From contig JBAZOQ010000001.1 in assembly GCA_041648595.1 (NCBI GenBank), forward strand, positions 82,242-146,241: a stretch of DNA of 64,000 nt. Direction: 5' to 3'. A program made the translations under genes and the position numbers. Source of the DNA: Minisyncoccota bacterium. Its GTDB lineage: Bacteria > Patescibacteriota > Minisyncoccia > Phycocordibacterales > UBA9973. Position 1 is the stretch's first letter. Each line of letters starts with the position of its first letter. Below are positions 1-48,986 of this stretch, one piece after another. The notes under the pieces are model-generated. The model did no database searches, was not told where the DNA came from, and saw only the letters and a list, made by a program, of their open reading frames with translations.

Positions 1-1
1 T

Positions 2-307
2 GCTTCTGGGCTTCCAACTCATGAATTTACTTTTCTTGGTTTTATTCCACATAAAAAAGGGAGAGAAACTTTATTTAAAGAGATAGCTCTCTCAAAGAGA
101 ACTATGGTATTTTATGAATCTCCACATCGTATTTTAAAAACATTGGAATCATTAAATAAATTTTGTCCAAATAAAAAAGTTTGCATAGCTCGTGAGATTA
201 CCAAAATTTATGAAGAATTTAAAACAGGTTCTTCATTAGAGCTCTTAGATTACCTAACAAAAAATCCTATTAAACAAAAAGGGGAGTTTACGGTATTGGT
301 TTCCTAA
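2..307 (+). CDS. rsmI: 16S rRNA (cytidine1402-2'-O)-methyltransferase RsmI, C-terminal part; 5' end lies outside the window
   Basis: The frame is open from the window start (ASGLPTHEFTFLGFIPHKKG...YESPHRILKTLE...REITKIYEEF...GEFTVLV), matching the C-terminal motifs of tetrapyrrole-methylase-family RsmI. The ORF track gives only the M-started 104..307 portion. Confidence 0.7.
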   Translation, partial: ASGLPTHEFTFLGFIPHKKGRETLFKEIALSKRTMVFYESPHRILKTLESLNKFCPNKKVCIAREITKIYEEFKTGSSLELLDYLTKNPIKQKGEFTVLVS

Positions 308-368
308 TTTTACAACAAATCTTTTGAATTTATAAAAATTTTGTAAAAAGATATGTTATAATTAAAGA

Positions 369-1349
369 GTGAAGAAATTAGAAAATAAAAATAAAATAGT
401 TATATATCAGGCTTCATCTGGAGCTATTGAACTTCGTGGAGATTTTGAAAAAGAAACAGTATGGGCAACACAAGCACAGATTGCTCAGCTTTTTGATGTT
501 ACCCCTCAAAATGTGACATTACACTTAAATAATATTTTTAAAGACAAAGAATTGGACATAAAAGCAACTTGTAAGGAATCCTTACAAGTTCAAACCGAAG
601 GAAACAGAAAGATTAAAAGAAATATTAAACTTTATAATTTAGATGCAATTATTGCTGTAGGTTATCGTATAAGTTCAGTAATGGGAACTAATTTTCGCAT
701 TTGGGCTACGAAAACTTTACGTGAACATATCATAAAAGGCTATACAATAAATCGTAAACAAATCGCAAAAAATTATAATGCTTTTATGCAAGCTGTAGCT
801 AATGTTCAAAATTTATTACCAGAGCATATTACACTTGATCCTAAAGCAGTTCTAGAACTTATTAAAGAATTTGCTAGCACATGGATGTCAATTGGTGCTT
901 ACGATAAAGAAACACTAAAAATTATTGGTTCTACTAAAAAAGCTATTAAATTTAGTGGTATAGAATTAACTAATGCTATTATTGATTTACGTTCTAAATT
1001 AATTAAAAATAAAGAAGCTACAGAAATTTTTGCACAAGAAAGAGAGAAAGGAAGCATAGAAGGAATAGTTGGAAATGTTATGCAAACTTTCGGAGGTAAA
1101 GCACTTTATAAAACTACAGAGGAAAAAGCAGCACACCTTTTATATTTTATGGTTAAGAATCATCCTTTTATAGATGGAAACAAGCGTTCTGGTGCATTTG
1201 CTTTTATTTGGTTTTTAAGAAAAACTAAAACAAAAGGATTTAGAAATATAAATCCAGCAACATTAACAACTCTTACACTTCTTATAGCTGAAAGTGATCC
1301 AAAAAAGAAAGATCAAATGGTTGCATTAGTTACTCAATTGTTGAAATAA
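369..1349 (+). CDS. RhuM-family virulence protein fused to a C-terminal Fic/Doc-like domain (HPFIDGNKR motif); GTG start
   Basis: The N-terminal region (IVIYQ...IELRGDFEKETVWATQAQIAQLFDVTPQNVTLHLNNIF...YNLDAIIAVGYRISS..GTNFRIWATKTLREHIIKGY) is typical of RhuM. The C-terminal HPFIDGNKRSGAFAFIWFL matches the Doc/Fic HxFx(D/N)GNKR motif. Confidence 0.75.
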   Translation: MKKLENKNKIVIYQASSGAIELRGDFEKETVWATQAQIAQLFDVTPQNVTLHLNNIFKDKELDIKATCKESLQVQTEGNRKIKRNIKLYNLDAIIAVGYRISSVMGTNFRIWATKTLREHIIKGYTINRKQIAKNYNAFMQAVANVQNLLPEHITLDPKAVLELIKEFASTWMSIGAYDKETLKIIGSTKKAIKFSGIELTNAIIDLRSKLIKNKEATEIFAQEREKGSIEGIVGNVMQTFGGKALYKTTEEKAAHLLYFMVKNHPFIDGNKRSGAFAFIWFLRKTKTKGFRNINPATLTTLTLLIAESDPKKKDQMVALVTQLLK

Positions 1350-1369
1350 ATATAAGGAGTAGTATTTTA

Positions 1370-1684
1370 CTACTCCTTATATGCAATTCTTCTTTCAAAA
1401 AAAATTTTTATAAAGAATTGCCCACCTTTTTTCTCTTTTACTTGTTCTTTTTTATAAATTCTTTGCAAGAAAAAATTACTTTTAACTAGTTTTGGATTAT
1501 CTAAAAAAAAGCATACTTTATCAGATATAATAAAATCTTCTTTTAAAATATCTTCTATTAAAACTTCTTTATATAGTTCCCCACATAATCCGACAACTTT
1601 TTTCTTTGCATCTTCTTCAGATGAAAAAGAAAAACTAATAATTTCTTTATTAAGAGAATTTATAAAATAGTATAAAAAATACAT
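1370..1684 (-). CDS. hypothetical small protein
   Basis: A 104-aa ORF between the RhuM gene and priA with no recognisable motif. It could be spurious in AT-rich DNA. Confidence 0.3.
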   Translation of the reverse strand: MYFLYYFINSLNKEIISFSFSSEEDAKKKVVGLCGELYKEVLIEDILKEDFIISDKVCFFLDNPKLVKSNFFLQRIYKKEQVKEKKGGQFFIKIFFERRIAYKE

Positions 1685-1750
1685 AAGAACACTCCTTCCT
1701 TTTTTCTTTTTAATATAGACTTTTTATTTTTTATGTCAAATAGTAGTTTT

Positions 1751-3775
1751 TTAGAGTAAATCCTCTGGATCTATAGAGATTTCGTAAGTAGGAGGTAGAG
1801 ATAATAACAAATTATATAAATTCTGATCTATTACTGAATTATTAGAAATTTCTGGTAATGACCATTTTTGGGGATTTAATCTTATTAATGCATTAGTTAC
1901 ATATTGATTTTTATTTTTACTTATAAATCCACTAAAAATTTCTGGTTCATATAATTTTAAAATTTCACTTAAATTTCTTTTTGCTTCTATGGAATCTTCT
2001 TTTTCTCCTAAAAATGTAATTTTTATAAAACGTTTGTATGGAGGATAATTTAGATTTTTTCTATCTTCTAATTCCTCACGTACATAAGAAAGTAAATTTT
2101 CTGATTTAAATGCAAGTAAAGTTTTGTCATTTTTATTTTTTGTTTGAATGATAAGTTTTTTTTCAGTTTTATCAAGAATAGAAAGTAAAAGCTGAATTAT
2201 TTTTTCACTCATTCTAAAACTTGGTATACTCCAAAGAGCATCAAATGAAGCTACAATAGATAAATCAACTTTTTCTTTTAAGTAATAAAAAGCCATTTCT
2301 GTGCCTATTAATATTTTACCAACATTCTCTCCGCCGGAGGCGGATCCGCCCTTGGCGGAAAAATCTTTTATTATTTTTTCTGCTCCAGATGCTGTTTTTG
2401 CTATTTCTTTATCTATTTTAAAGATTTTTGTTTTATTAAATTTATTTTTTATTTCTTCAAAAATTGTATCTGTTCCTATACCGAGTGGCATCAAGTTCCA
2501 GCTTCCACAATTTATACATTTTGTTTGTGGATCTTTTTCCGTATTGCACTTGTTGCAGATAAACATTCTTTTTTTACCATCCTTAGAAAGATAAAGTACA
2601 AGTGGAGCTAAACATTCTTCACAATTGACTGTTTCATTACAATCTTTACATACAGTATACGTTGCTAGGCCTTTTCTTAGTGAAAAGATGAAAACATTTT
2701 TTTTGTTATTTAAAGAATTTTCTATTTCCTCAATACTTATATCATTAAATATTTTAAACTTAGAGGCCTTGCCTCCGCTTGGAGGCAAGGCCTCTAAGTT
2801 TTCTTCTTTATTTGTATTTATTATCTTTGTTATTACTTGATTAAAATTAGTTCTAAAAGACAAAGGATATATTTCACTAAAATTATCAATTTCTTTTCTT
2901 GCTATTGTTTCAAAACGTAATAATGTATCACCTAATATAAATTTTGCATTAATTTTTGAAGCGAAAAGTTCCGCAAAAATTCGTAAATCAAAATGAGGTC
3001 GTGGAATCATCTTGTAAACATTTGAGCTTTCATGTTCAACTATTATTACACTTATGTCTATACGAGGTATAGACAAAAATGGTGCAGTCCCTAATATTAA
3101 TACGCCATGTTCTGAATTTATTATATTTTTATATTGTTCAATGACTTTTTTAGGTTTTAATCCTCCATGTATAGAAAAAGTAAAATTTTCAATACCCTTA
3201 GAAAGTGATTGATAATACATATTTATATCATGTTCTGTAGGTAATATAATAAAGACAGATTTTTTTAGAGCAAATTGTCCACGAATTAGAGTTTTATAAT
3301 AGGAAATACGATCCTCTAATTGTGCTTGGAATAATAATTTTTCAGTTTTTATATTATTAGAAATATCTGCTGTTTTTTCTTTTTGATTATTTTCGTTTAA
3401 AGAAAATTGATTACTAGAAGAAAATTCTAATATTTCATCATATTTTTCTCGGAATATTGACGGAATAAGAGACAATACTCCATTATTTTTTTTTGTCATA
3501 AAATAAGAACTTAAAAGAAAAGTAGATTCTAGATATTCATTTCTAAAAATTGAATGCTCTTTTACCTCAGTTATTTTTTTCAACTTAAAAGACATATTTT
3601 TGATTTTTGATTTTATATCTGTAACTTCTTGAGAAGAAACAACTAAACCTAGAATTTTTTTATTGCGAACAGGAACATAAACAATACTTCCATTTTTTAT
3701 ATCTTTTGACGTAAAATAACTTAAATCTGTTTTGAAAACTCCTTTTTCTAGTGGTATTATGGTCACAATTTTCAT
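1751..3775 (-). CDS. priA: primosomal protein N' (PriA helicase)
   Basis: It has helicase motifs and a Cys4 zinc-binding region (CKDCNETVNCEEC...CNKCNTEKDPQTKCINCGS) within 674 aa. It contains two in-frame GC-rich palindromic insertions (see findings). Confidence 0.8.
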   Translation of the reverse strand: MKIVTIIPLEKGVFKTDLSYFTSKDIKNGSIVYVPVRNKKILGLVVSSQEVTDIKSKIKNMSFKLKKITEVKEHSIFRNEYLESTFLLSSYFMTKKNNGVLSLIPSIFREKYDEILEFSSSNQFSLNENNQKEKTADISNNIKTEKLLFQAQLEDRISYYKTLIRGQFALKKSVFIILPTEHDINMYYQSLSKGIENFTFSIHGGLKPKKVIEQYKNIINSEHGVLILGTAPFLSIPRIDISVIIVEHESSNVYKMIPRPHFDLRIFAELFASKINAKFILGDTLLRFETIARKEIDNFSEIYPLSFRTNFNQVITKIINTNKEENLEALPPSGGKASKFKIFNDISIEEIENSLNNKKNVFIFSLRKGLATYTVCKDCNETVNCEECLAPLVLYLSKDGKKRMFICNKCNTEKDPQTKCINCGSWNLMPLGIGTDTIFEEIKNKFNKTKIFKIDKEIAKTASGAEKIIKDFSAKGGSASGGENVGKILIGTEMAFYYLKEKVDLSIVASFDALWSIPSFRMSEKIIQLLLSILDKTEKKLIIQTKNKNDKTLLAFKSENLLSYVREELEDRKNLNYPPYKRFIKITFLGEKEDSIEAKRNLSEILKLYEPEIFSGFISKNKNQYVTNALIRLNPQKWSLPEISNNSVIDQNLYNLLLSLPPTYEISIDPEDLL
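2329..2360. repeat. GC-rich double-hairpin element (family D copy 1), in-frame inside priA, encoding ...SAKGGSASGGEN...
   Basis: The sequence ccgccggaggcgg atccgcccttggcggaaaaa forms two adjacent hairpins. The 3' half (gatccgccYttggcggaaaa) is nearly identical to an intergenic copy at 42486..42518. Confidence 0.7.
2764..2795. repeat. Perfect 32-bp GC-rich palindrome in-frame inside priA (encodes LEALPPSGGKASKF)
   Basis: The sequence gaggccttgcctcc gctt ggaggcaaggcctc has 14-bp perfect arms in an otherwise ~25% GC gene. The frame is preserved on the priA strand, and the palindrome also creates the spurious antisense ORF 2625..2840. Confidence 0.75.
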
Positions 3776-3818
3776 GTTTCTATTCTAACATAACTTATGA
3801 TATATTTAATTAATGGGT

Positions 3819-3933
3819 CCCGTTAGAAGCCGCGGTCACGGTGTATAGCGGGAAACAAAGAAAATTATTTATTTAAGTTAATATTAGTAGGCGTAATTTA
3901 TGTAAAAATAGACCGCGACCTGCTTCTAACGGG
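3819..3933. mobile_element. MITE-like element copy A with 11-12 bp perfect terminal inverted repeats TCCCGTTAGAAG / CTTCTAACGGGA, flanked by the 5-bp direct repeat ATGGG (3813-3817 and 3934-3938)
   Basis: The structure is ATGGG t cccgttagaag ccgcggtc acggtgtatagcggga ... gaccgcgacctg cttctaacggg ATGGG. The right-hand ATG is the mreB start codon. The extended arms (ccgcggtc/gaccgcg) are also complementary. Confidence 0.6.
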
Positions 3934-4947
3934 ATGGGAATTTTTTCAAGAAAATTAGGCATAGACCTAGGCACAGCCAATACTTTGGTTTTTTTGCCTG
4001 GTAAGGGAATAGTATTAAATGAACCTTCAGTTGTAGCAGTTTCAGAACAAGACAATAAGATTCTAGCTATTGGTTTTGAGGCTAAAGATATGATAGGAAA
4101 AACACCAGATTCAATAATTACTTATTGTCCTATGAAAGATGGTGTTATTGCAGATTATAGAGTCACAGAAGCAATGCTTCATTATTTTATAAATAAAGCA
4201 TTGGGAAAATTTAATTTTTTTAAACCAGATGTGATGATTTCAGTACCAGCTGGTGTCACCTCAACAGAGAGAAGAGCTGTAGTAGAAGCAGCAATACGTG
4301 CTGGAGCTAGAAATGCTTATGTAGTTAAAGAGCCGATACTTGCAGCAATTGGTGCTGGTATTCCTATTTATGAATCAAAAGGACATATGGTGGTAGATAT
4401 CGGTGGAGGAACTACCGATGTTGCTGTTATTTCATTGGGAGGAATTGTTGCTTCTACTTCTGTTAAATGTGCTGGAAATAAAATTGATCAAGCTATAGCT
4501 GATTATATTAAAAAAACTTTTAATTTGGCTATAGGAGACAGAACAGCCGAAGAAGTAAAAATAAAAATTGGAGCAGCTGTTCCACTTGAAGAAGAACTTA
4601 GGGTTACAATAAAAGGAAGAGATTTTATTCAAGGGTTGCCAAGATCTGCTCAAGTGGGAACCAATGAAATAGTGAAAGCAATAGATGGAGAATTAAAACA
4701 GATAATAAAAGCTATAAAAGATGTATTACAAGAAACTCCACCAGAACTTGCTTCTGATATTATGGATTATGGAATTATTATGACAGGAGGGACGTCTCAG
4801 TTGCGTAATTTAACAGATTTAGTTTATAGAAAAACTGGAGTAAAAGCAACATTAGCCGATGAATCTATTTTTTGTGTAGTAAAAGGGACAGGCGTAGCAT
4901 TAGAGCATCTAGATGTATATAAAAAAACAGTTTTAAGTAAAAAATAG
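3934..4947 (+). CDS. mreB: rod shape-determining protein MreB (actin-like ATPase)
   Basis: The N-terminal sequence MGIFSRKLGIDLGTANTLVF..., an actin-fold phosphate-1 motif, and DIGGGTTD are present within 337 aa. Confidence 0.9.
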   Translation: MGIFSRKLGIDLGTANTLVFLPGKGIVLNEPSVVAVSEQDNKILAIGFEAKDMIGKTPDSIITYCPMKDGVIADYRVTEAMLHYFINKALGKFNFFKPDVMISVPAGVTSTERRAVVEAAIRAGARNAYVVKEPILAAIGAGIPIYESKGHMVVDIGGGTTDVAVISLGGIVASTSVKCAGNKIDQAIADYIKKTFNLAIGDRTAEEVKIKIGAAVPLEEELRVTIKGRDFIQGLPRSAQVGTNEIVKAIDGELKQIIKAIKDVLQETPPELASDIMDYGIIMTGGTSQLRNLTDLVYRKTGVKATLADESIFCVVKGTGVALEHLDVYKKTVLSKK

Positions 4948-4952
4948 AATTT

Positions 4953-5690
4953 ATGATTCTAGAACATTTAGATAAAAATAATTTACATCATGCATATTTG
5001 ATAGAAGGTAGAAAAGAGGATATTGTGCCAGATATTTTTGAATTTTTAAAAGATTTAAAAATAAATACATCCAACAATCCTGATTTTTATCATATGTCTT
5101 TTGATACATTTAAAATTGAGGATGCTCATAATTTAAAATCTATACAATATGAAAAAAGTTTTTCTTTGGGCAAAAAAATAATTTTGATTTCAGCTAATAA
5201 TTTTTTGTTAGAAGCACAAAATACTTTACTAAAAATTTTTGAAGAACCAATAGAAAATACGCATTTCTTTTTAATTGTGCCAAATAAAAATATTTTGTTA
5301 AAGACCTTACTCTCTAGATTTTATTTAATTCAAACTAAGTCAGACTTAGAAGAAGAATTGAAAGAAGCAGAAAAATTTATTTCAATGCCGTTGAGAAATA
5401 GATTAGACTATATTAAAGAATTTTTGATAGAAGAAGTCCCGACCGAAGTCGGGATCCCGACAGAGGTCGGGAAAGATATATTACAAGATTCTGTTCGTGC
5501 AAAAGCATTAAGGTTTCTCAATGCATTAGAAACTGTGCTTCACCACAGGGTAGCCCTGTGTAATTACACAGGGCTACCCTGTGGTGGTATTTTTGCTCAT
5601 ATTTTTAAAGTCCGTGAATTTATCAATCAACCTGGTTCATCAATAAAAAGCTTGATGGAATCTTTAGCACTAAAAATACCAAGTTTTTAA
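4953..5690 (+). CDS. holB: DNA polymerase III delta-prime-like subunit (HolB-like, degenerate, no P-loop)
   Basis: HHAYLIEG...NTLLKIFEEP...HFFLIV resembles the clamp-loader delta' fold, and a bona fide dnaX lies elsewhere in the window. It contains two in-frame GC-rich hairpin/palindrome insertions. Confidence 0.55.
   Translation: MILEHLDKNNLHHAYLIEGRKEDIVPDIFEFLKDLKINTSNNPDFYHMSFDTFKIEDAHNLKSIQYEKSFSLGKKIILISANNFLLEAQNTLLKIFEEPIENTHFFLIVPNKNILLKTLLSRFYLIQTKSDLEEELKEAEKFISMPLRNRLDYIKEFLIEEVPTEVGIPTEVGKDILQDSVRAKALRFLNALETVLHHRVALCNYTGLPCGGIFAHIFKVREFINQPGSSIKSLMESLALKIPSF
5436..5472. repeat. Two adjacent small GC hairpins in-frame in the holB-like gene (encode EVPTEVGIPTEVGK)
   Basis: The sequences cccgac cgaa gtcggg and tcccgac aga ggtcggga form a tandem peptide repeat PTEVG-IPTEVG. 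Confidence 0.6.
5541..5587. repeat. Perfect ~46-bp GC-rich palindrome in-frame in the holB-like gene (encodes HHRVALCNYTGLPCGG)
   Basis: The sequence caccacagggtagccctgtgtaat tacacagggctaccctgtggtg has ~23-bp perfect arms. Confidence 0.75.
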
Positions 5691-5721
5691 TTTTAATCAT
5701 AAAATGTTATGATATATAAAT

Positions 5722-6273
5722 ATGCAATATAATTTTTCAAATTTTAAGACAGAAATAAATAAAATAGCAGAATATTTAGGAAAAGAATATACTCAGCTTA
5801 ATATTGGCCGAGCATCACCTATGATACTCGATAGTGTGTCTGTAGAATCATATGGTTCACGTGTTCCATTGAAAAATATTGCTTCTGTTTCTATTGAAGA
5901 TCCGAAAACTTTACGTATTATAGCTTGGGATAAAAACCAAATTAAAGAAATTGAAAAAGCTATAGTATCCTCAAATTTAGGATTATCAGTTGCTGTAGAT
6001 GGTGGAGGCATTAGAGTTATTTTTCCACAATTGACTACTGATACAAGGCAAACACTTGTAAAAGTATTAAAAGAAAAATTAGAAGAAAGTAGAATAACAG
6101 TACGTAAAGAACGTGAAAGAATTTGGGATGAAGTTCAAAAATTAGAGAAAGAAGGGAAGATGACTGAAGATGAAAAATTTAGAGCAAAAGAAGATTTGCA
6201 AAAAGTAATAGATGAAATAAATCAAAAATTGGAAGATATTTTTGAAAAAAAAGAAAAAGAGGTATTGGGGTAG
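5722..6273 (+). CDS. frr: ribosome recycling factor
   Basis: The 183-aa protein starts MQYNF...IGRASPMILDSVSVESYGSRVPLKNIASVSIEDPKTLRI... and has a C-terminal charged coiled arm. Confidence 0.85.
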   Translation: MQYNFSNFKTEINKIAEYLGKEYTQLNIGRASPMILDSVSVESYGSRVPLKNIASVSIEDPKTLRIIAWDKNQIKEIEKAIVSSNLGLSVAVDGGGIRVIFPQLTTDTRQTLVKVLKEKLEESRITVRKERERIWDEVQKLEKEGKMTEDEKFRAKEDLQKVIDEINQKLEDIFEKKEKEVLG

Positions 6274-6315
6274 AACAGCTTATAGGTGTTAGCTTTTAGC
6301 TTATAGAGAAATACA

Positions 6316-7452
6316 ATGAACATACTTATATTTATAATCATTCTTCTTGTCCTCGTCCTAGTTCATGAATTTGGACATTTTTTTACTGCAAAAAGATTTG
6401 GTATTAGAGTGGATGAATTTGGTTTTGGTTTTCCTCCTAAGTTATTTAGTTGGAAATATGGTGAAACAGAGTATAGCATCAATCTTTTACCAATCGGAGG
6501 ATTCGTAAAAATTTTTGGTGAAGATATGGATGAAGCAGATCTGTTGGAGGTTGGATTTTTAGATAAAAAAGAAACTGTAGAAAAAATAGATTCAGCAAGG
6601 AGCTTGGTGAATAAACCAAAATATCAACAAGCGTTAGTTATGTTTGCTGGAATTTTTTCTAATTTTTTACTTGCCTGGCTTTTGTTTTCTGTTGGTTTTA
6701 TGTCTGGACTTCCTACTTCGGTTGGAAGTGAACCGAAAGGATATACAGTGAAAGATCCACATTTGGTTTTAGTTTCTGTTTTAGCTAATTCACCAGCTGA
6801 AATGGGTGGATTAAAATCAGGGGATAAAATAGTTTTAATTAAAAGTGGAAATGATTTAGTTCAAAATATCAATCCTGATATATTGAAATCTTTTATAGTT
6901 TCTCATGGTGATAAAGAAATTGAGTTTAGCTATATACGTGGAAAAGATGAAACAATAAGAATTACAAATATAACTCCTTCTATAAGTGCGACTAATCAAA
7001 ACCCCAGCATTGGTATAGCTATGGATGAAATAGGTATCGTTAAATTGCCTATTTTAAGTGCCCTTTGGGAAGGTTTAAAATTAGATTGGTCTGTCACTAA
7101 AAACACTGTTATAGGGCTTTATACGCTCATTAAGGAGGGTATAACAGGCAAAGGAAGCTTCTCTTCGGTCACTGGACCTGTCGGAATGGTGGGTATAGTC
7201 GGAGATGCATACCAATTTGGTTTTGTATATTTGCTATCTTTTGCAGCATTAATTTCAGTTAATTTAGCCATAATAAATCTTATTCCATTTCCAGCATTAG
7301 ATGGTGGACGACTTCTCTTTTTACTTATTGAAAAAATAAAAGGTTCTCGTTTAAATCCAAAATTTGCAAATGGTGCTAATATGGTAGGTTTTGCATTACT
7401 AATTATTCTAATGCTTTTTGTTACTTATCATGATGTAGTTAAATTATTTTAA
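6316..7452 (+). CDS. rseP: RIP zinc metalloprotease RseP (site-2 protease) with PDZ domain
   Basis: An HEFGHFF motif (HExxH) lies in the first TM helix, followed by a PDZ region and an LNLIPFPALDGGRLL C-terminal motif. Confidence 0.85.
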   Translation: MNILIFIIILLVLVLVHEFGHFFTAKRFGIRVDEFGFGFPPKLFSWKYGETEYSINLLPIGGFVKIFGEDMDEADLLEVGFLDKKETVEKIDSARSLVNKPKYQQALVMFAGIFSNFLLAWLLFSVGFMSGLPTSVGSEPKGYTVKDPHLVLVSVLANSPAEMGGLKSGDKIVLIKSGNDLVQNINPDILKSFIVSHGDKEIEFSYIRGKDETIRITNITPSISATNQNPSIGIAMDEIGIVKLPILSALWEGLKLDWSVTKNTVIGLYTLIKEGITGKGSFSSVTGPVGMVGIVGDAYQFGFVYLLSFAALISVNLAIINLIPFPALDGGRLLFLLIEKIKGSRLNPKFANGANMVGFALLIILMLFVTYHDVVKLF

Positions 7453-8424
7453 ATGTTAAAAAATAAATTAAAAATTGGAGTGCTTTTTGGTGGTAAGTCT
7501 GCAGAGCATGATGTATCTATTTCATCATCAAAAAATATAATTGATGCATTAGATAAAAATAAATATCAAATTTTTGTAATAAAAATAGAAAAAAATGGTG
7601 AATTTGATTTGAATTTTGTAAAAAAAATGGATCTTATTTTTCCTGTATTACATGGACCATACGGAGAAGATGGAAGTATGCAAGGATTGTTAAAAATTCT
7701 TGGGATACCTTTTGTTGGTCCAAGTGTGCTTGGCTCAGCTGTCGGAATGGATAAAGATGTGATGAAAAGGCTATTTAGAGATGCAAAAATTCCCATTGGT
7801 AAATTTATTACTGTTTGTGCTGGAGAAAAAATATCTTTTGAAAAAGTTAAAAAAGTTCTTGGTTTACCAATGTTTATAAAACCTGCAAATATGGGTTCTT
7901 CTGTGGGTATTAATAAAGTTAAAAATAAAAAAGAATTTGAAATTGCAGTAAATGATGCGTTTCTATATGATTCAAAAATTGTAATTGAAGAAAATATAAA
8001 TGGACAAGAAGTGGAATGTTCAGTATTAGGAAATGAGAATCCAATGGCTTCTATTGTTGGAGAAATAGTTCCTAAAAATGACTTTTATTCGTATAAAGCA
8101 AAATATATAGATGGAGATGGTGCGGTACTTTTAATACCAGCAAGACTTTCAAAAACAATATCTAAAAAAGTTCAAAATTTAGCAATTAAAGTATTTCAAA
8201 CATTAAATTGTGAAGGAATGGGTAGAGTAGATTTTTTTGTTAAAAAAAATGGGGAGGTGATAGTCAATGAAATTAATACAATTCCAGGATTTACAGCTAT
8301 TAGTATGTATCCCAAACTTTGGGAAGCGAGTGGAATACCTCTATCAAAACTTTTAGATAGATTAATCGAGCTCGCAATAGAGCGATTTGAAAGAGAATCT
8401 AAACTAAAGACTACGGTTAAATAA
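7453..8424 (+). CDS. ddl: D-alanine--D-alanine ligase
   Basis: The protein shows an ATP-grasp fold, an N-terminus IGVLFGGKSAEHDVSISS and the C-terminal motif EINTIPGFT. Confidence 0.9.
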   Translation: MLKNKLKIGVLFGGKSAEHDVSISSSKNIIDALDKNKYQIFVIKIEKNGEFDLNFVKKMDLIFPVLHGPYGEDGSMQGLLKILGIPFVGPSVLGSAVGMDKDVMKRLFRDAKIPIGKFITVCAGEKISFEKVKKVLGLPMFIKPANMGSSVGINKVKNKKEFEIAVNDAFLYDSKIVIEENINGQEVECSVLGNENPMASIVGEIVPKNDFYSYKAKYIDGDGAVLLIPARLSKTISKKVQNLAIKVFQTLNCEGMGRVDFFVKKNGEVIVNEINTIPGFTAISMYPKLWEASGIPLSKLLDRLIELAIERFERESKLKTTVK

Positions 8425-8429
8425 AAAAA
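8372..8429 (+). repeat. 58-bp direct repeat copy 1 (native 3' end of ddl including the stop); the identical copy 2 is at 9224..9281
   Basis: The sequence tcgcaatagagcgatttgaaagagaatctaaactaaagactacggttaaataaaaaaa occurs twice, 852 bp apart. The 794 bp in between carry one minus-strand ORF. Confidence 0.8.
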
Positions 8430-8460
8430 GACCTACGGCTTGGTAGCTTTTGGTCTTTTT
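8428..8460 (+). terminator. rho-independent terminator after ddl
   Basis: The sequence aagacc tacggcttggtagcttt tggtcttttt forms a hairpin followed by a T-run. Confidence 0.6.
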
Positions 8461-8471
8461 ATCTTTCTGAT

Positions 8472-9086
8472 TTATACAGTAAAAAATAAATATCCTGCAT
8501 TTTGATCACCACTATAAGGATTGTTATATGAACCAGTAGTAATAACCTTATTATAACTTGGGTCATATACAACAATTAAATCATCATCATCTTGGTCTAA
8601 TTTCTCTAAGGGGTCACTCATGATGAATATACGATCCATATTGTGAATATTCAAAAATTCTTTAGTAAATATCTTTGAAATTATATATGCAACATGGAAT
8701 GTAATCTGCGGTGGAATTAAATAACAATCAGCAGGAAATCCATCTCTAATTAAAACTGAAGGATATCTACAATAAGTTGCCCTGCCTTTGATAATTGCTA
8801 CTTTATCAAATATTTCTCTAATAGAGCTAGAGAAACTTTTTTTGAAAAATCCAGATAGAATTAATTTATTGATTTTATTCCCAATGTCGATGTTTCTTAA
8901 TTTTAGATCATTGACCATAGCTGTGATTGACATATCATCACCTAGTGTTGATTTAGTAAAATCAAGATGCTTACCTAACCTATAGGTATTAGGTAACAGT
9001 AATATATCTACAATGATAATATCATCAGCCTTAATTCTAAATTGACCAACTTCCATTGTAAATATTTCTGATATTTTATTTTCCAT
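8472..9086 (-). CDS. hypothetical protein (only ORF inside the segment bounded by the duplicated ddl 3' end)
   Basis: A 204-aa ORF with no recognisable motifs, located between the two 58-bp direct repeats. Confidence 0.45.
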   Translation of the reverse strand: MENKISEIFTMEVGQFRIKADDIIIVDILLLPNTYRLGKHLDFTKSTLGDDMSITAMVNDLKLRNIDIGNKINKLILSGFFKKSFSSSIREIFDKVAIIKGRATYCRYPSVLIRDGFPADCYLIPPQITFHVAYIISKIFTKEFLNIHNMDRIFIMSDPLEKLDQDDDDLIVVYDPSYNKVITTGSYNNPYSGDQNAGYLFFTV

Positions 9087-9223
9087 TTTGAGCCTCGTTA
9101 TTTATTCTTTGTTTGTTGAGTTATTTTTATCTCTAAAATAGGGGACAAAAATAACCCAACAAATATTTTTAAAGATCAAAAAACTATGTTTATAATACAG
9201 TTATTATAATAAAAAGTCAATAG

Positions 9224-9281
9224 TTCGCAATAGAGCGATTTGAAAGAGAATCTAAACTAAAGACTACGGTTAAATAAAAAA
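9224..9281 (+). repeat. 58-bp direct repeat copy 2 (non-coding duplicate of the ddl 3' end)
   Basis: It is identical to 8372..8429. Confidence 0.8.
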
Positions 9282-9343
9282 ACCACTGTCTAACTTTTTA
9301 AGTTTTAAGTGGTTTTTTACAAGATTCTCAAGAAAAATTCATT

Positions 9344-9676
9344 TTATTTTTTTGCAAAAATATTATTACCTTTTTGCATTTTAAATGATATATAGTTCTC
9401 TGTTTCATGTACAATTTTTGCTTCAAGTCCAGTTATTTGGCATATTACTCTCATAAAAGACTCTGCATAAGCTTTATCTGGTAAATGATTTAATATTTCT
9501 ATTTTATCTTCCGATTGTACGCCTGTATTTTCAAAGTATAATCTATTTAGACTTGGACGAGTAACTGACATAAGAAGTGCATTACCATGCCCAATATGCA
9601 TTATCACTAAATCATCCTTTTGAATCCCTGTTCTTTTTAACACTGTTTTTGAATTTGTTTCTTGTTGCGTTACCAT
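9344..9676 (-). CDS. hypothetical protein
   Basis: A 110-aa ORF (..LVIMHIGHGNALLMSVTRPS..) with a hairpin terminator downstream at ~9282-9320. No confident family assignment. Confidence 0.4.
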   Translation of the reverse strand: MVTQQETNSKTVLKRTGIQKDDLVIMHIGHGNALLMSVTRPSLNRLYFENTGVQSEDKIEILNHLPDKAYAESFMRVICQITGLEAKIVHETENYISFKMQKGNNIFAKK

Positions 9677-9824
9677 GTTTGACTCCTTTTATATTATTTA
9701 ATTAAATTAGTTATCTCTACCACCAAAAGAAGCAGAGAAAACTAATTTAATATAAACAAAAAGAAAATATCAAAGAACCTTAATACTTGTATAAGTATAG
9801 CATTTTATATTAAAAAGTCAAGAG

Positions 9825-9895
9825 CGGGTGATGAGGGAATCGAACCCCCGCCAAAGGATTTGGAGGCCTTCGTTCTGCCACTAAACTAATCACCC
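9825..9895 (-). tRNA. tRNA-Trp (anticodon CCA)
   Basis: The reverse complement GGGTGAT TA GTTT AGTGGCA GAAC G AAGGC CUCCAAA TCCTT TGGC GGGGG TTCGATT CCCTC ATCACCC G folds as a cloverleaf. The acceptor stem is perfect, the T-loop is TTCGATT, and the anticodon loop CUCCAAA matches bacterial tRNA-Trp. One C-U mismatch sits at the 31-39 position. Confidence 0.7.
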
Positions 9896-9901
9896 ATGGC
9901 T

Positions 9902-10558
9902 TTATTTATACCTTTTCATGAAAACTTTTGCAATAGATTGTAATTTACGAGCTACGGAAACATCTGAATAATGAAGTTTAATACAGCCTTGATATCCTTC
10001 TTTTTTATATTTTCCGCTATTTGATTTTAAATAACTTCTATTGAATTGCTCTTTTGGTATTTTTGTTATTTTTGACCAAAAATCTTTTTGGATTTTTTCA
10101 TTATGATATTTATGCAGATGCATTAAAATTCTAAACTTCTTCTCATCTAAATCAAAAGAATTTCTAAACAAATATAAGAAGGTAACAATTAGATCTGGGT
10201 CAGAATTTGTAAATGTTACAAGACTTTTAAGAGATTTATTGCCTTCACAAAAATAAATCATAGCACATAAGATAGCTCGGTCTGCTTTGGTACAATCAGT
10301 TTTAGAAAGTATCTCTTTTGCAAAATTATCAGCTTGAATATTTTTTTGACGAGTTTTTTCTTTTATTGTTTTTTGAGAAGCTAGTTGACCGTTTGTATAA
10401 TTCTTTTTTAGTCGAGCTTGAGCTTTGTCAGAAAGTTTTATTCCTTGTATCCATATAGAGATAGTGCCTTTAGATACCCCGAGCATTTTATGAAGTTCTT
10501 TCACAGAATATCCTTTCTTCCTCAATTCTGTAGCTTTTATTTGTAAGTCTTTTTTCAT
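9902..10558 (-). CDS. HTH-domain protein with a degenerate LAGLIDADG-like C-terminal region (homing-endonuclease-like), adjacent to tRNA-Trp
   Basis: The N-terminal ELRKKGYSVKELHKMLGVSKGTISIW looks like a transposase/resolvase-type HTH and is homologous to the 65-aa ORF at 24353..24550. The central AILCAMIYFCEGNKS resembles a degenerate LAGLIDADG motif. Confidence 0.4.
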   Translation of the reverse strand: MKKDLQIKATELRKKGYSVKELHKMLGVSKGTISIWIQGIKLSDKAQARLKKNYTNGQLASQKTIKEKTRQKNIQADNFAKEILSKTDCTKADRAILCAMIYFCEGNKSLKSLVTFTNSDPDLIVTFLYLFRNSFDLDEKKFRILMHLHKYHNEKIQKDFWSKITKIPKEQFNRSYLKSNSGKYKKEGYQGCIKLHYSDVSVARKLQSIAKVFMKRYK

Positions 10559-10619
10559 AAAATAGTATTTTATATATTATGTTATATAACTATTATACTA
10601 CATACAAAAACAAAAAGAA

Positions 10620-10645
10620 ATCCCCCTAGAGAGGGGGATTTTCTG
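10620..10645 (-). terminator. hairpin terminator downstream of rpmG (possibly bidirectional)
   Basis: The sequence atccccctagagagggggat forms a perfect 8-bp stem with T-rich flanks on both strands. Confidence 0.55.
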
Positions 10646-10655
10646 ACGACTTTAA

Positions 10656-10814
10656 TTACTTCTTAATCTCTTTATGCTTAACTTGTTTTTTGCACCATTT
10701 GCAATACTTCTTGAGCTCAATCTTTTTAGTGACGAGTTTCTTATTTTTACTGGACCAGTAATTTATACGTTTACAGGTAGTACATGCAAGTTTTATAAGT
10801 CTTTCTTGTGACAT
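10656..10814 (-). CDS. rpmG: 50S ribosomal protein L33 (not in the ORF track; 52 aa)
   Basis: Hand translation of the minus strand gives MSQERLIKLACTTCKRINYWSSKNKKLVTKKIELKKYCKWCKKQVKHKEIKK. It shows the classic bL33 Cys pair pattern and length. Confidence 0.8.
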   Translation of the reverse strand: MSQERLIKLACTTCKRINYWSSKNKKLVTKKIELKKYCKWCKKQVKHKEIKK

Positions 10815-10851
10815 GTATATAGAATAATATAAAATCCTTTAAAAAGCAACC

Positions 10852-11763
10852 TTATATCAATTTTTTTAAATTTATCTTTTTGGATGCATCAAACCACTTA
10901 ATTTCTTTATCGCGTTTAAACCATGTCATTTGGCGTTTTGTGTATTTTATAGTTTCTTTTACAACTTTTTTATAAGTAGGGGAATCGTATTCAAAACCAA
11001 ACTCTTTTAGTCTTTTCTCTGATATACCAAATTTTTTGAGTTTTTTTATTTCATTAAGTAAACCATCTGCAAACATTTTTTTAACTCTTTTTTCTATTTT
11101 CTTTTTTAAAATATCTGTTGGTAAATATAATCCAATTTTTATGAATTTATATGGTGATACACTTTCTGCCATGGCAGAGTTTGTATCACTTTGTAGTTTT
11201 GGAACTTTACCGAGAGCTTTTGCTATCTCTATTGCTCTCACTAATCTCACTTTATTATTTAACTCATTTTTATTTTTAATATCTTTTGCACGTCTAGGGT
11301 CTAATTTTTTCAAATACTCAAATAATGCTATCGCAGATTTTGAGTATAATGCTTTTCTCAATTTCAAATTTGGTGGAACTTTTGGAAAAACTGTCCCTTT
11401 AGTAATTGCATCAATATAAAAACCAGTACCTCCACAGATAATTGGAGTTTTACCTTTTTTTACAATCTCAGCCATGGCGTAGATTGCTTTTTTTTGATAT
11501 TTGGCTACTGTGAATTTCCGTTTAGGATCTACAACATCAATAAGATGATGAAAAATTCCTTTCATTTCTTTAGTAGTAATTTTTCCAGTCCCAATATCAA
11601 GTCCTTTATAAACTTGTCTAGAATCAGCAGAAATAACCTCTGCACCGTTTATCCCTGCTTTTTTAGCTTGTCCTGAGCTTAGTCGAAGGGCAATTTTAAC
11701 AGCTAAATTACTCTTTCCAGTAGCTGTAGGGCCTAATATTACAATAACTTTTGGTTTTTGCAT
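10852..11763 (-). CDS. miaA: tRNA dimethylallyltransferase (isopentenyl-adenosine A37)
   Basis: The N-terminal P-loop is VIVILGPTATGKSNLAVKIAL, and ...SADSRQVYKGLDIGTGK is the MiaA signature. Confidence 0.9.
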   Translation of the reverse strand: MQKPKVIVILGPTATGKSNLAVKIALRLSSGQAKKAGINGAEVISADSRQVYKGLDIGTGKITTKEMKGIFHHLIDVVDPKRKFTVAKYQKKAIYAMAEIVKKGKTPIICGGTGFYIDAITKGTVFPKVPPNLKLRKALYSKSAIALFEYLKKLDPRRAKDIKNKNELNNKVRLVRAIEIAKALGKVPKLQSDTNSAMAESVSPYKFIKIGLYLPTDILKKKIEKRVKKMFADGLLNEIKKLKKFGISEKRLKEFGFEYDSPTYKKVVKETIKYTKRQMTWFKRDKEIKWFDASKKINLKKLI

Positions 11764-22479: not shown

Positions 22480-22572
22480 AAAGGAATTTCAAAAAATTTC
22501 TGAGCCTTCGCCCTCGGAGTCCGTGAGGACAGGGGACCCACGACTCTTGAAATTCTTTAAATTCCTTTTTAT
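22480..22572. repeat. Palindromic GC-core element family C, copy 1 (intergenic, dus-dnaX)
   Basis: The sequence is taaaaaggaatttcaaaaaatttctgagccttcgccctcggagtccgtgaggacaggggacccacgactcttgaaattctttaaattccttttta. The AT-rich arms are mutually complementary, and the conserved GC core is shared with copies at ~40901..41002 (reverse) and ~49711..49820. Confidence 0.75.
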
Positions 22573-22599
22573 TTTCTAAAAATCTGATATAGTTATTCT

Positions 22600-43618: not shown

Positions 43619-43701
43619 CTACTTATTAAATTGACTAACCCAAAATATTTTTTTATCTTTTAACCACTTTAATATTAGTTTTCCATATTTTTATAATATC
43701 T

Positions 43702-43735
43702 AACATCCTTACAAACTCCAGTTTGTAAGGATGTT
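43702..43735. terminator. 15-bp-stem hairpin aacatccttacaaac tcca gtttgtaaggatgtt, downstream of the ArsR-family gene
   Basis: It has a perfect stem and shares the core ctacaaactccagtttgtag with the hairpin at ~44037..44070. Confidence 0.55.
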
Positions 43736-43736
43736 A

Positions 43737-44036
43737 TTATGTTTGTTTAAATAATTTTAAAAAATTAACAAAGATTTTACCATATGGAGATAAAGTATGT
43801 TCAACAAATTTACCTTTATATTTTTTATTAATCAATCCTGCTTGGTGAAGTCTTCGAGTATGCTCTCCTATTGTTTTCGGATTTGCATCAAGCGTTTCAA
43901 TAATACCATCAAGAGTTATTCCATCTTCCTTGGCTACAAGAAGTAATATTTCAATGCGATGATGGTTTGCCATACCTTTGAGATGTCGCTCCATTTGTTT
44001 AGCTGTTTTTATTTTACCCATATTTATATTATACAC
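43737..44036 (-). CDS. ArsR/SmtB-family winged-helix transcriptional regulator; GTG start
   Basis: HHRIEILLLVAKEDGITLDGIIETL...HTRRLHQAGLI is the ArsR HTH signature. Confidence 0.75.
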   Translation of the reverse strand: MYNINMGKIKTAKQMERHLKGMANHHRIEILLLVAKEDGITLDGIIETLDANPKTIGEHTRRLHQAGLINKKYKGKFVEHTLSPYGKIFVNFLKLFKQT

Positions 44037-44070
44037 AATACCCCTACAAACTCCAGTTTGTAGGGGTATT
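44037..44070. terminator. Second hairpin of the same family, aatacccc(c)tacaaac tcca gtttgtaggggtatt, between the SWIB gene and the ArsR gene
   Basis: The loop and inner stem are the same as 43702..43735, while the outer stem carries compensatory changes. Confidence 0.55.
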
Positions 44071-44122
44071 ATTTAAATTAGAAGCAAAAATTATTTCTTT
44101 GCTTTTTTGGTTTAACTTAAAA

Positions 44123-48390: not shown

Positions 48391-48986
48391 TGTAATGTTG
48401 TCTTTATTATACCTGAAAGTTTTTTATTACCAAACAACGAAGCATATTTCTTTGCTCTTGTGGAATTAATTTTTTCTTTATTAAAACGAGAAATCGGTTT
48501 TTGTCCACTCATTAATCGCAAATAATTTGCGTCTACAAAAGCTTTTTCAGCATCTGCAATGTTAAAACCTAGACCTTTCTGTTTTTGAATTTCGTAACCA
48601 GTGTATGCAACTTTTTTTATTTTTCGATAAGAAAAAATTTTTCCTAATGCTTCAAACCTACGTGTAGCTTTAGTAGTTACTGAAGTAATTTCATAAACTG
48701 TCTCCGGAATAACTCCATAATATGAAAGTGCAAATTCAAGTGAAATATAAGATGGAGTATAAAGTTTACTAGCAACATAAACATCAGGTGGTAAGGTATC
48801 TGGAAAAACATAGAATCCTTTCTTAAGTTGTATTATAAATCCTTGTTTTTTATACCTGTGAAGTAGTGCAGATGCAGCAACAGCAGAAACTCCAAACAAA
48901 GAGCGAATATCACTTGCATTAAATATATATAACTTTTTACCCTTTATTTTTGAGGCAAAAAGTGTCTGATTCACCAATTTGACCAT
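48387..48986 (-). CDS. AbiEi-family antitoxin/transcriptional regulator (partner of AbiEii)
   Basis: It sits immediately upstream of, and translationally coupled to, the AbiEii gene. The size and N-terminal wHTH-like region fit AbiEi. Confidence 0.55.
   Translation of the reverse strand: MVKLVNQTLFASKIKGKKLYIFNASDIRSLFGVSAVAASALLHRYKKQGFIIQLKKGFYVFPDTLPPDVYVASKLYTPSYISLEFALSYYGVIPETVYEITSVTTKATRRFEALGKIFSYRKIKKVAYTGYEIQKQKGLGFNIADAEKAFVDANYLRLMSGQKPISRFNKEKINSTRAKKYASLFGNKKLSGIIKTTLQ

Follow-up and report, generated by a model that had tools for sequence, protein, structure and literature searches.

The duplicated 3' end of ddl

In the 64-kb stretch of DNA analysed here (the window), which belongs to an uncultivated member of the Paceibacterota, ddl occupies positions 7453..8424 on the plus strand and encodes an intact D-alanine--D-alanine ligase of 323 residues (Pfam Dala_Dala_lig_C, 8.6e-74; Dala_Dala_lig_N, 5.3e-29); the 3' end of this gene is present twice. 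A repeat search of the window revealed that 8372-8429 is identical to 9225-9282, the two 58-bp copies being spaced 853 bp from start to start, and that this core is the longest exact direct repeat in the window; in 30 windows simulated under a Markov-1 model the longest repeats reached 16-21 nt, compared with 58 in the real sequence. With one mismatch (C8371/T9224) the repeat extends to 61 nt, from 8369-8429 to 9222-9282. Copy 1 comprises the last 53 coding nucleotides of ddl (codons 307-323 and the stop) followed by AAAAA and completes the gene in frame. Copy 2, the displaced duplicate, has an in-frame TAG immediately upstream and no start codon, and is a non-coding relic of the ddl 3' end. 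The copies agree at 58 of 58 positions, and both carry the two synonymous bases that separate the resident ddl from its relatives of 93% identity; these shared lineage-specific bases fit an in-place copying of the resident sequence. A search of the window for further copies of the 58-mer, whether a third exact one or a degenerate one, found none. Direct reading of the 58-mer gave an inverted repeat of only 4 bp and no clear core-type inverted repeats. The exact 58-bp duplication proposed in the earlier note is thereby borne out by the repeat search, by the simulations and by three assemblies; the size given for the DNA between the copies (794 bp) and the end given for copy 2 (9281) are to be corrected to 795 bp (8430-9224) and 9282.

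The data are short-read metagenome assemblies, and one may wonder whether the two copies are really one, the segment between them having come from another strain or from a free circle. The JGI assembly does break 47 bp from copy 2, and the contig L029 of a related sample ends exactly at the ddl stop. Against this reading, a MEGAHIT k141 contig (L010) is 100% identical over 6 kb that include both copies, and two JGI contigs contain one copy each with unique sequence on either side. The stretch shared by those two contigs, 127 bp at 9051-9177, does not touch the repeat, and the JGI break falls inside a 5'-UTR instead of at the repeat. A k=31 Logan contig ends at 9253, a stop that follows from the fact that a 31-mer graph must branch there if the 58-mer has two different right flanks. 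The three assemblies are 100% identical and support both junctions, which are internal to contigs assembled at k = 127 and k = 141, each exceeding 58; these values derive from the 127-bp overlap, from the k141 contig name and from what we take to be the default settings of JGI and MEGAHIT. Moreover, a free circle together with an empty chromosome cannot yield k-mers that span the ddl body, the repeat and the terminator behind it. An assembly artefact is unlikely, and we would give such a mixture of strains hardly any credence.

The inserted units and the empty site

The empty site is seen in six contigs from relatives whose Ddl is 96% identical (93% at the nucleotide level), in which the ddl stop is followed by AAGA, the 3' end of tRNA-Trp, rpmG and miaA, so that ddl ends 4 nt from the 3' end of the convergent tRNA gene. 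Genes for the proteins of 204, 110 and 218 residues described below are all absent from these six contigs and also from a lineage with 86% identity, and in a limited sampling of four other lineages (96%, 86% and 82% among them) no occupant was seen at the ddl 3' end. No genome was found that lacks the 204-aa unit alone, the insert-free relatives being devoid of the 110-aa unit as well. Since the empty site has no terminators, both terminators of the locus and the 110-aa gene must also be inserted DNA, and the total insertion at the ddl/tRNA-Trp junction amounts to 1.39 kb, made of two similarly built units that each possess a promoter, a 5'-UTR hairpin, an ORF and a bidirectional terminator. 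Comparison with close relatives upholds the earlier proposal that the DNA between the copies was inserted, and it shows ddl to have an intact 3' end: the Ddl protein has the same length as its 96%- and 86%-identical orthologues, and its C-terminal residues are as in the relatives. The same comparison contradicts the expected empty site of ddl followed directly by a terminator, and it withdraws tRNA-Trp (CCA; 9824..9895, minus strand) from the cargo of the supposed island, this gene being a conserved core gene in the relatives. Rfam recognised only this tRNA at the locus. The conserved right flank is formed by rpmG (L33) and miaA (10656..11763, minus strand).

Unit 1 is the only unit bracketed by the repeat, and its 795 bp are filled from edge to edge by a single module. 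Terminator A (8425..8462) consists of an A-tract, a hairpin and a T-tract; it resembles a bidirectional intrinsic terminator, folds at -14.9 (plus) and -12.3 (minus) kcal/mol with ViennaRNA and is missing from the empty site. Repeat copy 1 ends in this A-tract, the terminator begins at the repeat, and it would serve both ddl on the plus strand and the 204-aa gene on the minus strand. The latter (8472..9086) is the only gene between the repeats, and is preceded by a 5'-UTR stem-loop (9112..9163, minus strand), an inverted repeat with a 20-bp stem and a fold z-score of -3.9, to which comparable hairpins exist upstream of the homologues in contigs L001, L004 and L026. A promoter-like site (9192..9220, minus strand; TTGACT, 17 nt, TATTAT) completes the module; its -35 box ends 4 nt from copy 2, and the site is conserved from -35 to -10 with that of a 55%-identical homologue in contig L025. 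This edge-to-edge arrangement, with a promoter conserved in another genome, points to a travelling unit that runs from promoter to terminator. The suggestion that the segment is a remnant of a larger element does not sit with an intact module occupying all 795 bp, and we consider it unlikely.

Unit 2 opens with a second and different terminator-like hairpin, again bidirectional (terminator B, 9277..9318; -14.6 and -12.5 kcal/mol), which uses the A-tract of copy 2 and is likewise missing from the empty site. It continues with an ORFan of 110 residues (9344..9676, minus strand) that has no flanking repeat and whose product matched only itself among 5.8 billion proteins, and then, within 9678..9821 on the minus strand, with a 5'-UTR hairpin (9678-9774) and a promoter-like site (9794-9821). 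The right ends of the two units are alike, 9805-9824 of unit 2 matching 9204-9223 of unit 1 at 18 of 20 positions, and the exact 11-mer TTGACTTTTTA occurs only in these two ends within the 64 kb. The final AAGAG of unit 2 is ancestral, being the 4-nt spacer plus the first base of the tRNA; unit 1 ends in AATAG. The interiors of the units are unrelated, and the 204-aa and 110-aa proteins are not paralogues. The 1.39-kb insertion has AAGA at either outer end (8428-8431 and 9820-9823), and a CAATAG motif lies near the inner junction, where it was not used as a joint. No compositional anomaly was detected across the insert.

Between tRNA-Trp and rpmG lies a gene for a 218-aa protein (9902..10558, minus strand) whose only Pfam and NCBIfam matches are to an N-terminal helix-turn-helix (HTH_23, 7e-5, below the cut-off). 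The relatives have 70 bp in its place, and the gene is a separate insertion, outside the repeat-flanked unit and beyond the tRNA. It had been described as HTH/LAGLIDADG-like and as a possible part of the same island; no LAGLIDADG match was obtained in Pfam, NCBIfam or PDB sequences, and no phage homologue was found. A single-sequence AF2 model of the protein (pLDDT 50) was too poor for use. Three separate small insertions thus lie within 2.2 kb around the tRNA, none with a recombinase and one with a flanking repeat.

The orphan protein and the search for a recombinase

The distribution of the 204-aa protein is patchy. Eight homologues (52-59% identity) were recovered, and a profile search of 1.84 billion representative proteins yielded only 11 members; the protein belongs to a tiny orphan family confined to Paceibacterota. 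Its AF2 model has a pLDDT of 78 and a pTM of 0.78. No match in sequence or fold was found, Pfam, NCBIfam, PHROGs and PADLOC included, and scanning all 16 family members with Pfam gave no consistent weak match; there was no transposase, recombinase or HUH family match, no occurrence in phage, plasmid or IMG/VR collections and, with regard to anti-phage defence or a phage family, no PADLOC, PHROG or viral-fold match. Helicase-associated repeats were entertained on account of a weak match in one 1343-aa protein (E 7e-6) and were dismissed, as Pfam did not reproduce the match on the family. The absence of a recognisable family stated in the earlier note has therefore withstood family, fold and remote-homology searches. 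The 16-member alignment contains no invariant polar residue, such residues being lost on inclusion of the two most distant homologues (22-29% identity). This is a weak hint that the protein serves in binding or structure and not as an enzyme; the cargo is a putative cytoplasmic accessory protein.

In every genome the homologue is a solitary gene in a different context and never beside ddl. Five unrelated settings were seen for the homologues of 52-59% identity, including a position behind gatB, one flanked by a methylase gene and tgt and one within a defence/TA island, and no flanking repeats or conserved ends were seen at these other loci. Such unrelated, repeat-free contexts indicate that the gene has been repeatedly relocated without the footprint left at ddl.

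That the repeats enclose a single gene and no integrase was rightly read from the sequence: the one ORF between them, 204 aa on the minus strand, has no recombinase signature. Nor was an integrase or transposase found in the flanks or among 30 larger ORFs of the window, the screen covering 64 kb of the genome. No attP-like free copy or fragment of the 58-mer was present in IMG/VR, and no attP-bearing relative in IMG/VR, INPHARED or PLSDB; scanning metagenomes for the ddl 3' end brought up nothing beyond one contig already known. The ends of the insert, GACCTACGG and ACTATTGAC, are not inverted repeats of one another, and there are no terminal inverted repeats. Two other origins were discarded on simple grounds. 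A transposon target duplication is at odds with the lack of terminal inverted repeats and of a transposase and with the 58 bp, which are too long (we know of no transposon family with a target duplication of such length), and a retro-copy of an mRNA is at odds with the inclusion of the promoter in the insert.

Origin of the insertion and comparison with known systems

The explanation that we favour, tentatively and somewhat short of calling it probable, is that the 853-bp unit arose by duplicative insertion of a horizontally acquired module through host recombination or repair at a hot spot. A self-contained module (promoter, 5'-UTR stem-loop, 204-aa ORF, bidirectional terminator) would have entered the convergent ddl/tRNA-Trp junction, the incoming DNA being processed by the recombination or repair machinery of the host, with no part for an integrase, whether encoded by the element or otherwise dedicated. 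One can envisage three routes: homology-anchored illegitimate recombination with ddl as the anchor, in the sense defined for homology-facilitated illegitimate recombination (PMC3240628); a single, Campbell-type crossover within the 58-bp homology that brings in a circularised fragment; or unequal recombination between two alternative occupants of the ddl/tRNA-Trp site. Whatever the route, one joint would fall inside ddl at codon 307, and the insertion would have been tolerated only thanks to a duplication of the 58 bp that follow this joint; by this duplication ddl keeps a complete 3' end in copy 1, now ended by the terminator of the module, and copy 2 is left as a dead relic. The route and the order of these events are what we infer from the present-day sequence. 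The clustering of three insertions without a recombinase would be covered by a single non-specific mechanism, the DprA encoded in the window fits an uptake of DNA, and duplications generated by transformation have been described (PMC3784515). The 4-nt AAGA microhomology, typical of illegitimate joints, is a weak sign in the same direction. None of the observations indicates that the module is an element able to move by itself. Several observations weigh against duplicative insertion by the host: a repeat that runs from inside a gene to just past its stop has precisely the layout to be expected of an att identity block by which the target gene is regenerated (PMC4383910), the inner junction shows no positive sign of an illegitimate joint, homology-facilitated illegitimate recombination usually gives replacement with deletion and not duplication, and the screen that found no recombinase extended to 64 kb only. 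Simple insertion also does not account for the agreement of the two right ends at 18/20 positions, and no data set contained either hypothetical precursor, one with ddl, repeat, terminator B and the 110-aa gene but no 204-aa unit, the other with tRNA-Trp directly adjoined by the 204-aa unit.

The resemblance of the two units is the starting point of a sub-case of this explanation, in which an unequal, illegitimate crossover joined two alternative occupants of the hot spot. One chromosome would have carried ddl, repeat, terminator A, the 204-aa gene, its promoter and tRNA-Trp, the other ddl, repeat, terminator B, the 110-aa gene, its promoter and tRNA-Trp, and the tandem would result from joining the first, at its tRNA-proximal end, to ddl codon 307 of the second. 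Each unit indeed has the 58-mer first and the same 20 nt last, the 11-mer is confined to these ends, unit 2 alone closes on the ancestral AAGAG and the interiors differ; however, neither single-occupant allele was found, the promoter of unit 1 is conserved elsewhere, so that the shared 20 nt may be no more than similar AT-rich promoters, and a 4/5 match to the ancestral bases is too short to carry weight. We consider this particular crossover improbable. A serious rival, doubtful in our opinion yet deserving of attention, is site-specific integration in trans, in which the 58-mer is the att identity block (attL in copy 1, attR in copy 2) and a recombinase encoded at another place in the genome, or supplied by a helper element, inserted an 853-bp circle with attP and the 204-aa module into the ddl 3' end; the unit would then be a miniature cis-mobilizable element (CIME) or cassette-like element that supplies ddl with a new 3' end and terminator. 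This reading draws on the exact repeat, which spans the ddl 3' end through the stop plus 5 nt, beside a tRNA gene and in a region variable among relatives, and on a compact layout with the recombination site directly after the terminator of the gene. The lack of a recombinase inside is what the definition of a CIME demands (PMC6323972), and a regenerated target with a displaced fragment is in principle what marks the ends of an island (PMC4383910). On the other side stand the absence of an integrase in the 64 kb and of an attP-bearing relative in the three collections searched, the ddl 3' ends left unoccupied in four other lineages, the cargo homologues that lack flanking repeats and never adjoin ddl, the 58-mer devoid of clear core-type inverted repeats, the similar adjoining unit, which has no repeat, the lack of a third att copy such as tandem accretion would leave, and the size of 0.85 kb, far below that of described CIMEs. 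The classic site-specific integration invoked in the earlier note consequently finds no positive support beyond the repeat itself, there being no integrase in the 64 kb, no attP-like copy in IMG/VR, no third att copy, no occupied ddl ends among the four other lineages and no flanking repeats around the cargo homologues elsewhere. It is hardly likely that the 204-aa protein is itself a new recombinase or transposase of an autonomous single-gene element of IS200-like size and layout, with the hairpins as its ends. The gene is always solitary and in a context that differs per genome, a hairpin lies on each side of the ORF in several loci, and the unit is close to IS200 in size; but no transposase, recombinase or HUH match exists, the 16-member alignment has no invariant polar residue (a result that rests on the two most distant members), each genome has one copy and the viral and plasmid collections none, the other loci have no flanking repeats or conserved ends, and terminator plus 5'-UTR structure explain the hairpins adequately. 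A bolder and quite improbable proposal regards the 853-bp unit as a minimal mobile gene cassette of CPR bacteria that would excise as a circle and re-integrate at the ddl 3' end. The recombinase would belong to no known family and would act in trans or be the 204-aa protein itself, and the stacked pair of units beside tRNA-Trp would form a rudimentary cassette array, analogous to an integron and mechanistically unrelated to it.

Among known systems, host recombination of the kind favoured above resembles single-crossover insertion-duplication and homology-facilitated illegitimate recombination (PMC3240628) in leaving an exact duplication of resident sequence around foreign DNA with no dedicated recombinase, and recombination during natural transformation, known to cause merodiploidy (PMC3784515), in that DprA is present in the window. 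Those processes, however, are known from laboratory systems in Acinetobacter, Streptococcus and E. coli, with replacement or large duplications as the usual outcome, whereas here the process is deduced from a static sequence in a CPR genome. Elements of the ICESt type at the 3' end of fda in Streptococcus provide an example of CIMEs, and described CIMEs are generally far larger than 0.85 kb. CIMEs are integrase-less islands that retain attL and attR (PMC6323972). Like them, unit 1 has its cargo between direct repeats in which a housekeeping gene's 3' end is comprised, leaves the target intact and contains no integration or transfer genes; it differs in having no known cognate integrase-bearing element or att-sharing relative, the att function being putative, and in being a single-gene unit of 0.85 kb adjoined by one without repeats. 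Tyrosine-integrase islands of the Islander type, situated in tRNA genes or at gene 3' ends (PMC4383910), share the regenerated target with a displaced fragment at the ends and the adjacent tRNA gene; relatives lack the insert, though together with the 110-aa unit, and here unit 1 has no integrase, the duplicated gene is ddl and not the tRNA, of which no fragment is duplicated, and the ddl site is not reused in the other genomes examined. With regard to IS200-type elements, the length of ~0.7-0.8 kb, the one small ORF and the hairpins near both ends are similar, whereas unit 1 is single-copy and without a Y1/HUH signature, and IS200 makes no target duplication against the 58 bp seen here.

The locus is a small documented example of the gain of accessory genes in the streamlined genomes of CPR/Patescibacteria, in which complete promoter-to-terminator modules were dropped between convergent core-gene ends and, in this instance, the core gene struck by the insertion survived thanks to a duplication; the locus offers a comparison of empty and filled sites, and the 204-aa family with its conserved 5'-UTR hairpin constitutes a clean orphan target for studies of structure and function. 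With integron gene cassettes the locus shares a single ORF of ~0.8 kb followed by a repeat of ~58 bp, the size of a recombination site, in two tandem units of the same orientation. Unlike in integrons, the repeat is not an imperfect palindrome of the attC type, IntI, attI and Pc are lacking, every unit comes with a promoter and a terminator of its own, and the final 'site' forms part of a coding gene. Should the 58-mer nevertheless be a working att site, unit 1 would be the smallest integrase-less integrative unit known and would represent the first cassette-type mobility system in CPR bacteria.

The repeated ddl end and its assembly support

The window derives from a metagenome-assembled genome of Candidatus Paceibacterota (CPR) and is AT-rich, with a G+C content of about 30%. 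A repeat search of the window paired 8369-8429 with 9222-9282, direct copies of 61 nt that differ at one position. Their exact core (58 nt, 8372-8429 and 9225-9282, spacing 853 bp) is longer than any other exact direct repeat in the 64 kb; the longest repeats in 30 Markov-1 simulated windows were 16-21 nt. The duplication of the ddl 3' end reported in the earlier note is thus real. Copy 1 spans codons 307-323 of ddl (7453-8424, plus strand; Pfam Dala_Dala_lig_N/C) and its stop codon, followed by five A's. Copy 2 lacks a start codon and is preceded directly, in the frame of ddl, by a TAG; it is therefore a non-coding relic. Between the copies lie 795 bp (8430-9224) with only one ORF, of 204 aa on the minus strand, and nowhere else in the window is the 58-mer present, even in degenerate form. 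In layout, the two copies match the regenerated target end and displaced target fragment of an Islander-type island.

Three assemblies agree on the locus. The MEGAHIT contig k141_195877 from ENA is 100% identical to the window across 6 kb, with both copies inside. The JGI/NCBI assembly splits the locus into two contigs (window 1-9177 and 9051 onward), each carrying one repeat copy with unique sequence on either side; their 127-bp overlap lies within the 5'UTR of the 204-aa gene, outside the repeat, and has the length expected of a k = 127 graph break under the JGI metaSPAdes settings. The Logan contig (k = 31) stops at 9253, exactly the point at which two different sequences to the right of the 58-mer would force a 31-mer graph to branch. 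A free circle beside an empty chromosome could not give k-mers running across the ddl body, the repeat and terminator A, the hairpin at the end of copy 1. That the duplicated copies are an assembly artefact is very unlikely. The JGI break (9051-9177) is a 127-mer inside the 5' end and UTR of the 204-aa gene, beside an A6 run, and a related sample's contig (L029) terminates exactly at the ddl stop codon; together these hint at population heterogeneity around the locus.

Other repeats were seen elsewhere in the window. A perfect 46-bp, G+C-rich palindrome (5541-5586, CACCACAGGGTAGCCCTGTGTAATTACACAGGGCTACCCTGTGGTG) lies inside a holB-like coding sequence (DNA_pol3_delta2), which is 7 codons longer than its orthologue in L017, a contig of the lineage with 86%-identical Ddl. 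Two intergenic regions share a G+C-rich repeat (22492-22577 and 49734-49819; 78% over 86 nt, the first 43 nt being identical) that has no Rfam match, and the minus strand of 22492-22577 folds modestly better than shuffles (z = -2.3). Two 56-nt repeats (43683-43738 and 44018-44073, 80% identical), each with a promoter-like TATAAT and a hairpin, are located in a 1.4-kb stretch without long ORFs, and a 37-nt unit occurs twice in tandem at 53479-53552 (97% identical). An AbiEii toxin and AbiEi antitoxin pair (47629-48986, minus strand; type IV TA/abortive infection), followed by unannotated ORFs (45521-47578), is another accessory patch amid core genes (cell-wall synthesis, aaRS, dnaB).

The empty site and the inserted units

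In six contigs with 96%-identical Ddl (ddl 93% nt), the order is ddl, TAA, AAGA, the convergent tRNA-Trp 3' end, 70 bp, rpmG and miaA. Their homology to the window stops at 8426, restarts at 9820-9896 (AAGA spacer and tRNA-Trp) and again from 10657 (rpmG), which indicates that 1393 bp were inserted between ddl and tRNA-Trp in the window genome and that a second insertion brought the gene of a 218-aa HTH protein (9902-10558) between tRNA-Trp and rpmG. The 86% lineage shares upstream synteny with the window and is missing the 204-, 110- and 218-aa genes. The insertion proposed in the earlier note is hence borne out by the lack of the 204-aa segment from both lineages, neither of which has the 110-aa unit either. 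Two of its details need correction: the empty site is not ddl followed directly by a terminator, as had been expected, but ddl, AAGA and then tRNA-Trp; and the island, which the note suggested could continue through tRNA-Trp and the HTH gene, comprises 1.39 kb in two units, tRNA-Trp being a core gene by the relatives' gene order and the 218-aa gene a separate insertion.

In L017 the stretch from ddl to miaA carries rpmG and tRNA-Trp as a segment inverted (L017 6970-7320 versus window 9820-10865) relative to the window and the 96% lineage, and in an 82% lineage alr directly follows ddl; by these comparisons, the ddl/tRNA-Trp neighbourhood is a small rearrangement hot spot. Upstream of ddl, the closest relatives (L012-L016 and L020; 93% nt) carry map (Peptidase_M24) and not rseP (Peptidase_M50), with the synteny break exactly at the ddl start (7453). 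Identity to these relatives is uneven by block (ddl 93%, miaA 83%, murA end 94%).

The 1.39-kb insertion consists of two units of like build, only the first of which is flanked by the repeat. Unit 1 (8430-9224) comprises a bidirectional terminator-like hairpin predicted by folding, whose A-tract is the end of copy 1, the 204-aa ORF, a 20-bp 5'UTR stem-loop (inverted repeat, 9112-9163) and a promoter close to consensus (TTGACT, 17 nt, TATTAT), with 4 nt between its -35 box and copy 2. In unit 2 (9283-9819), a different bidirectional terminator-like hairpin takes its A-tract from copy 2. The unit further holds a 110-aa ORF, a 5'UTR with a long hairpin (9678-9774) and a promoter; the insertion boundary falls inside the -35 box of this promoter, which reaches into ancestral sequence. 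The last 20 nt of the units are identical at 18 of 20 positions and include an 11-mer, TTGACTTTTTA, that occurs nowhere else in the window; the two encoded proteins are unrelated to each other. AAGA stands at both outer ends of the insertion (8428-8431 and 9820-9823), a microhomology of 4 nt that carries little statistical weight.

The inserted genes

Eight homologues of the 204-aa protein (52-59% identity) were found among 5.8 billion clusters, and the remote-homology search proposed in the earlier note gave only 11 representatives by profile among 1.84 billion proteins. Named hosts are Paceibacterota, Patescibacteria or unclassified bacterium, and just 2 of about 186,000 GTDB species representatives carry the gene. 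The protein is absent from IMG/VR, INPHARED and PLSDB and has no match in Pfam, NCBIfam, PHROG, PADLOC or PDB sequences, in keeping with the orphan status first assigned to it. An AlphaFold2 model from nine sequences is a confident alpha/beta fold (pLDDT 78, pTM 0.78), for which a Foldseek search of PDB and BFVD had no hits. Strong motifs (IIKGRxTxCRxPxxLIRDGFPxD, FLNIHNMDR and a C-terminal GYLFF) are common to the nine closest sequences, and no invariant polar residue is left once the most distant members join the alignment, which argues weakly against an enzyme.

The homologues are each solitary and occupy five unrelated contexts (after gatB, in a methylase gene/tgt gap, in a defence/TA-rich island and in two others), none with flanking repeats. 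Several have an equivalent 5'UTR hairpin of differing sequence (z = -3.5 to -7.2), which may have been conserved for cis-regulation or for mRNA stability; stem-loops of 17-24 bp occur at 9112-9163 and upstream of the homologues in L001, L004 and L026 (contigs from other genomes), and are weak in L006 and L025. The unrelated 110-aa gene likewise has a 5'UTR hairpin. From -35 to -10, the promoter of the 204-aa gene can be aligned with that of the L025 homologue, so that the conserved travelling unit runs from promoter to terminator.

The 110-aa protein is an ORFan with self-hits only among 5.8 billion proteins. The 218-aa protein (9902-10558, minus strand), located where relatives have 70 bp, has an N-terminal HTH (HTH_23, 7e-5) and no LAGLIDADG, recombinase or phage match; its single-sequence AF2 model (pLDDT 50) is unusable.

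Routes of insertion and known systems

Any mechanism has to cover the exact 58-bp duplication, from ddl codon 307 to 5 nt beyond the stop, one intact module occupying everything between the copies, the lack of a recombinase, two repeat-less insertions next door and the likeness of the two units at their right ends. Neither the flanks (Pfam) nor 30 larger ORFs from across the window yielded an integrase or transposase, and an autonomous element is most improbable. A decayed prophage or ICE is also unlikely, as internal deletion would need ends within 0-4 nt of both att sites while leaving one perfect module. A transposon is excluded by the lack of terminal inverted repeats and transposase, and no transposon family is known to make a 58-bp target duplication.

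We tentatively favour, at a little short of even confidence, the action of host recombination or repair on incoming DNA, with one joint falling inside ddl and the resident 58 bp becoming duplicated. DprA is encoded within the window. The insertion could have come about by illegitimate recombination anchored in homology (PMC3240628), by Campbell-type entry of a fragment that had circularised, or by an unequal exchange between alternative occupants of the site (compare PMC3784515), the last improbable as a specific case. Host recombination is favoured because one process would cover all three neighbouring insertions. It is also consistent with the perfect match between the copies, which have two lineage-specific synonymous bases in common, and with the relocation of 204-aa family genes to other sites without repeats. 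The other serious reading, though a less likely one, is that a trans-supplied recombinase integrated an 853-bp circle site-specifically, which would make the locus a miniature CIME (PMC6323972): the repeat position relative to the gene end fits very well, following the footprint logic for islands at target ends (PMC4383910), but it has no independent support, and a search of IMG/VR for attP-like copies of the 58-mer was negative. The earlier note is right on the insertion and the orphan gene; the classic site-specific event that it named would be the less likely course.

Compared with known systems, the locus has none of the defining features of integron cassettes or insertion sequences, and it lacks the integrase, the recurrent site use and the attP of the integrase-island class. 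With CIMEs it shares the repeat and the absence of an integrase. Judged from its layout, it would work like an att-flanked, integrase-less islet, and we file it as a very small accessory-gene islet at a gene 3' end beside a tRNA.
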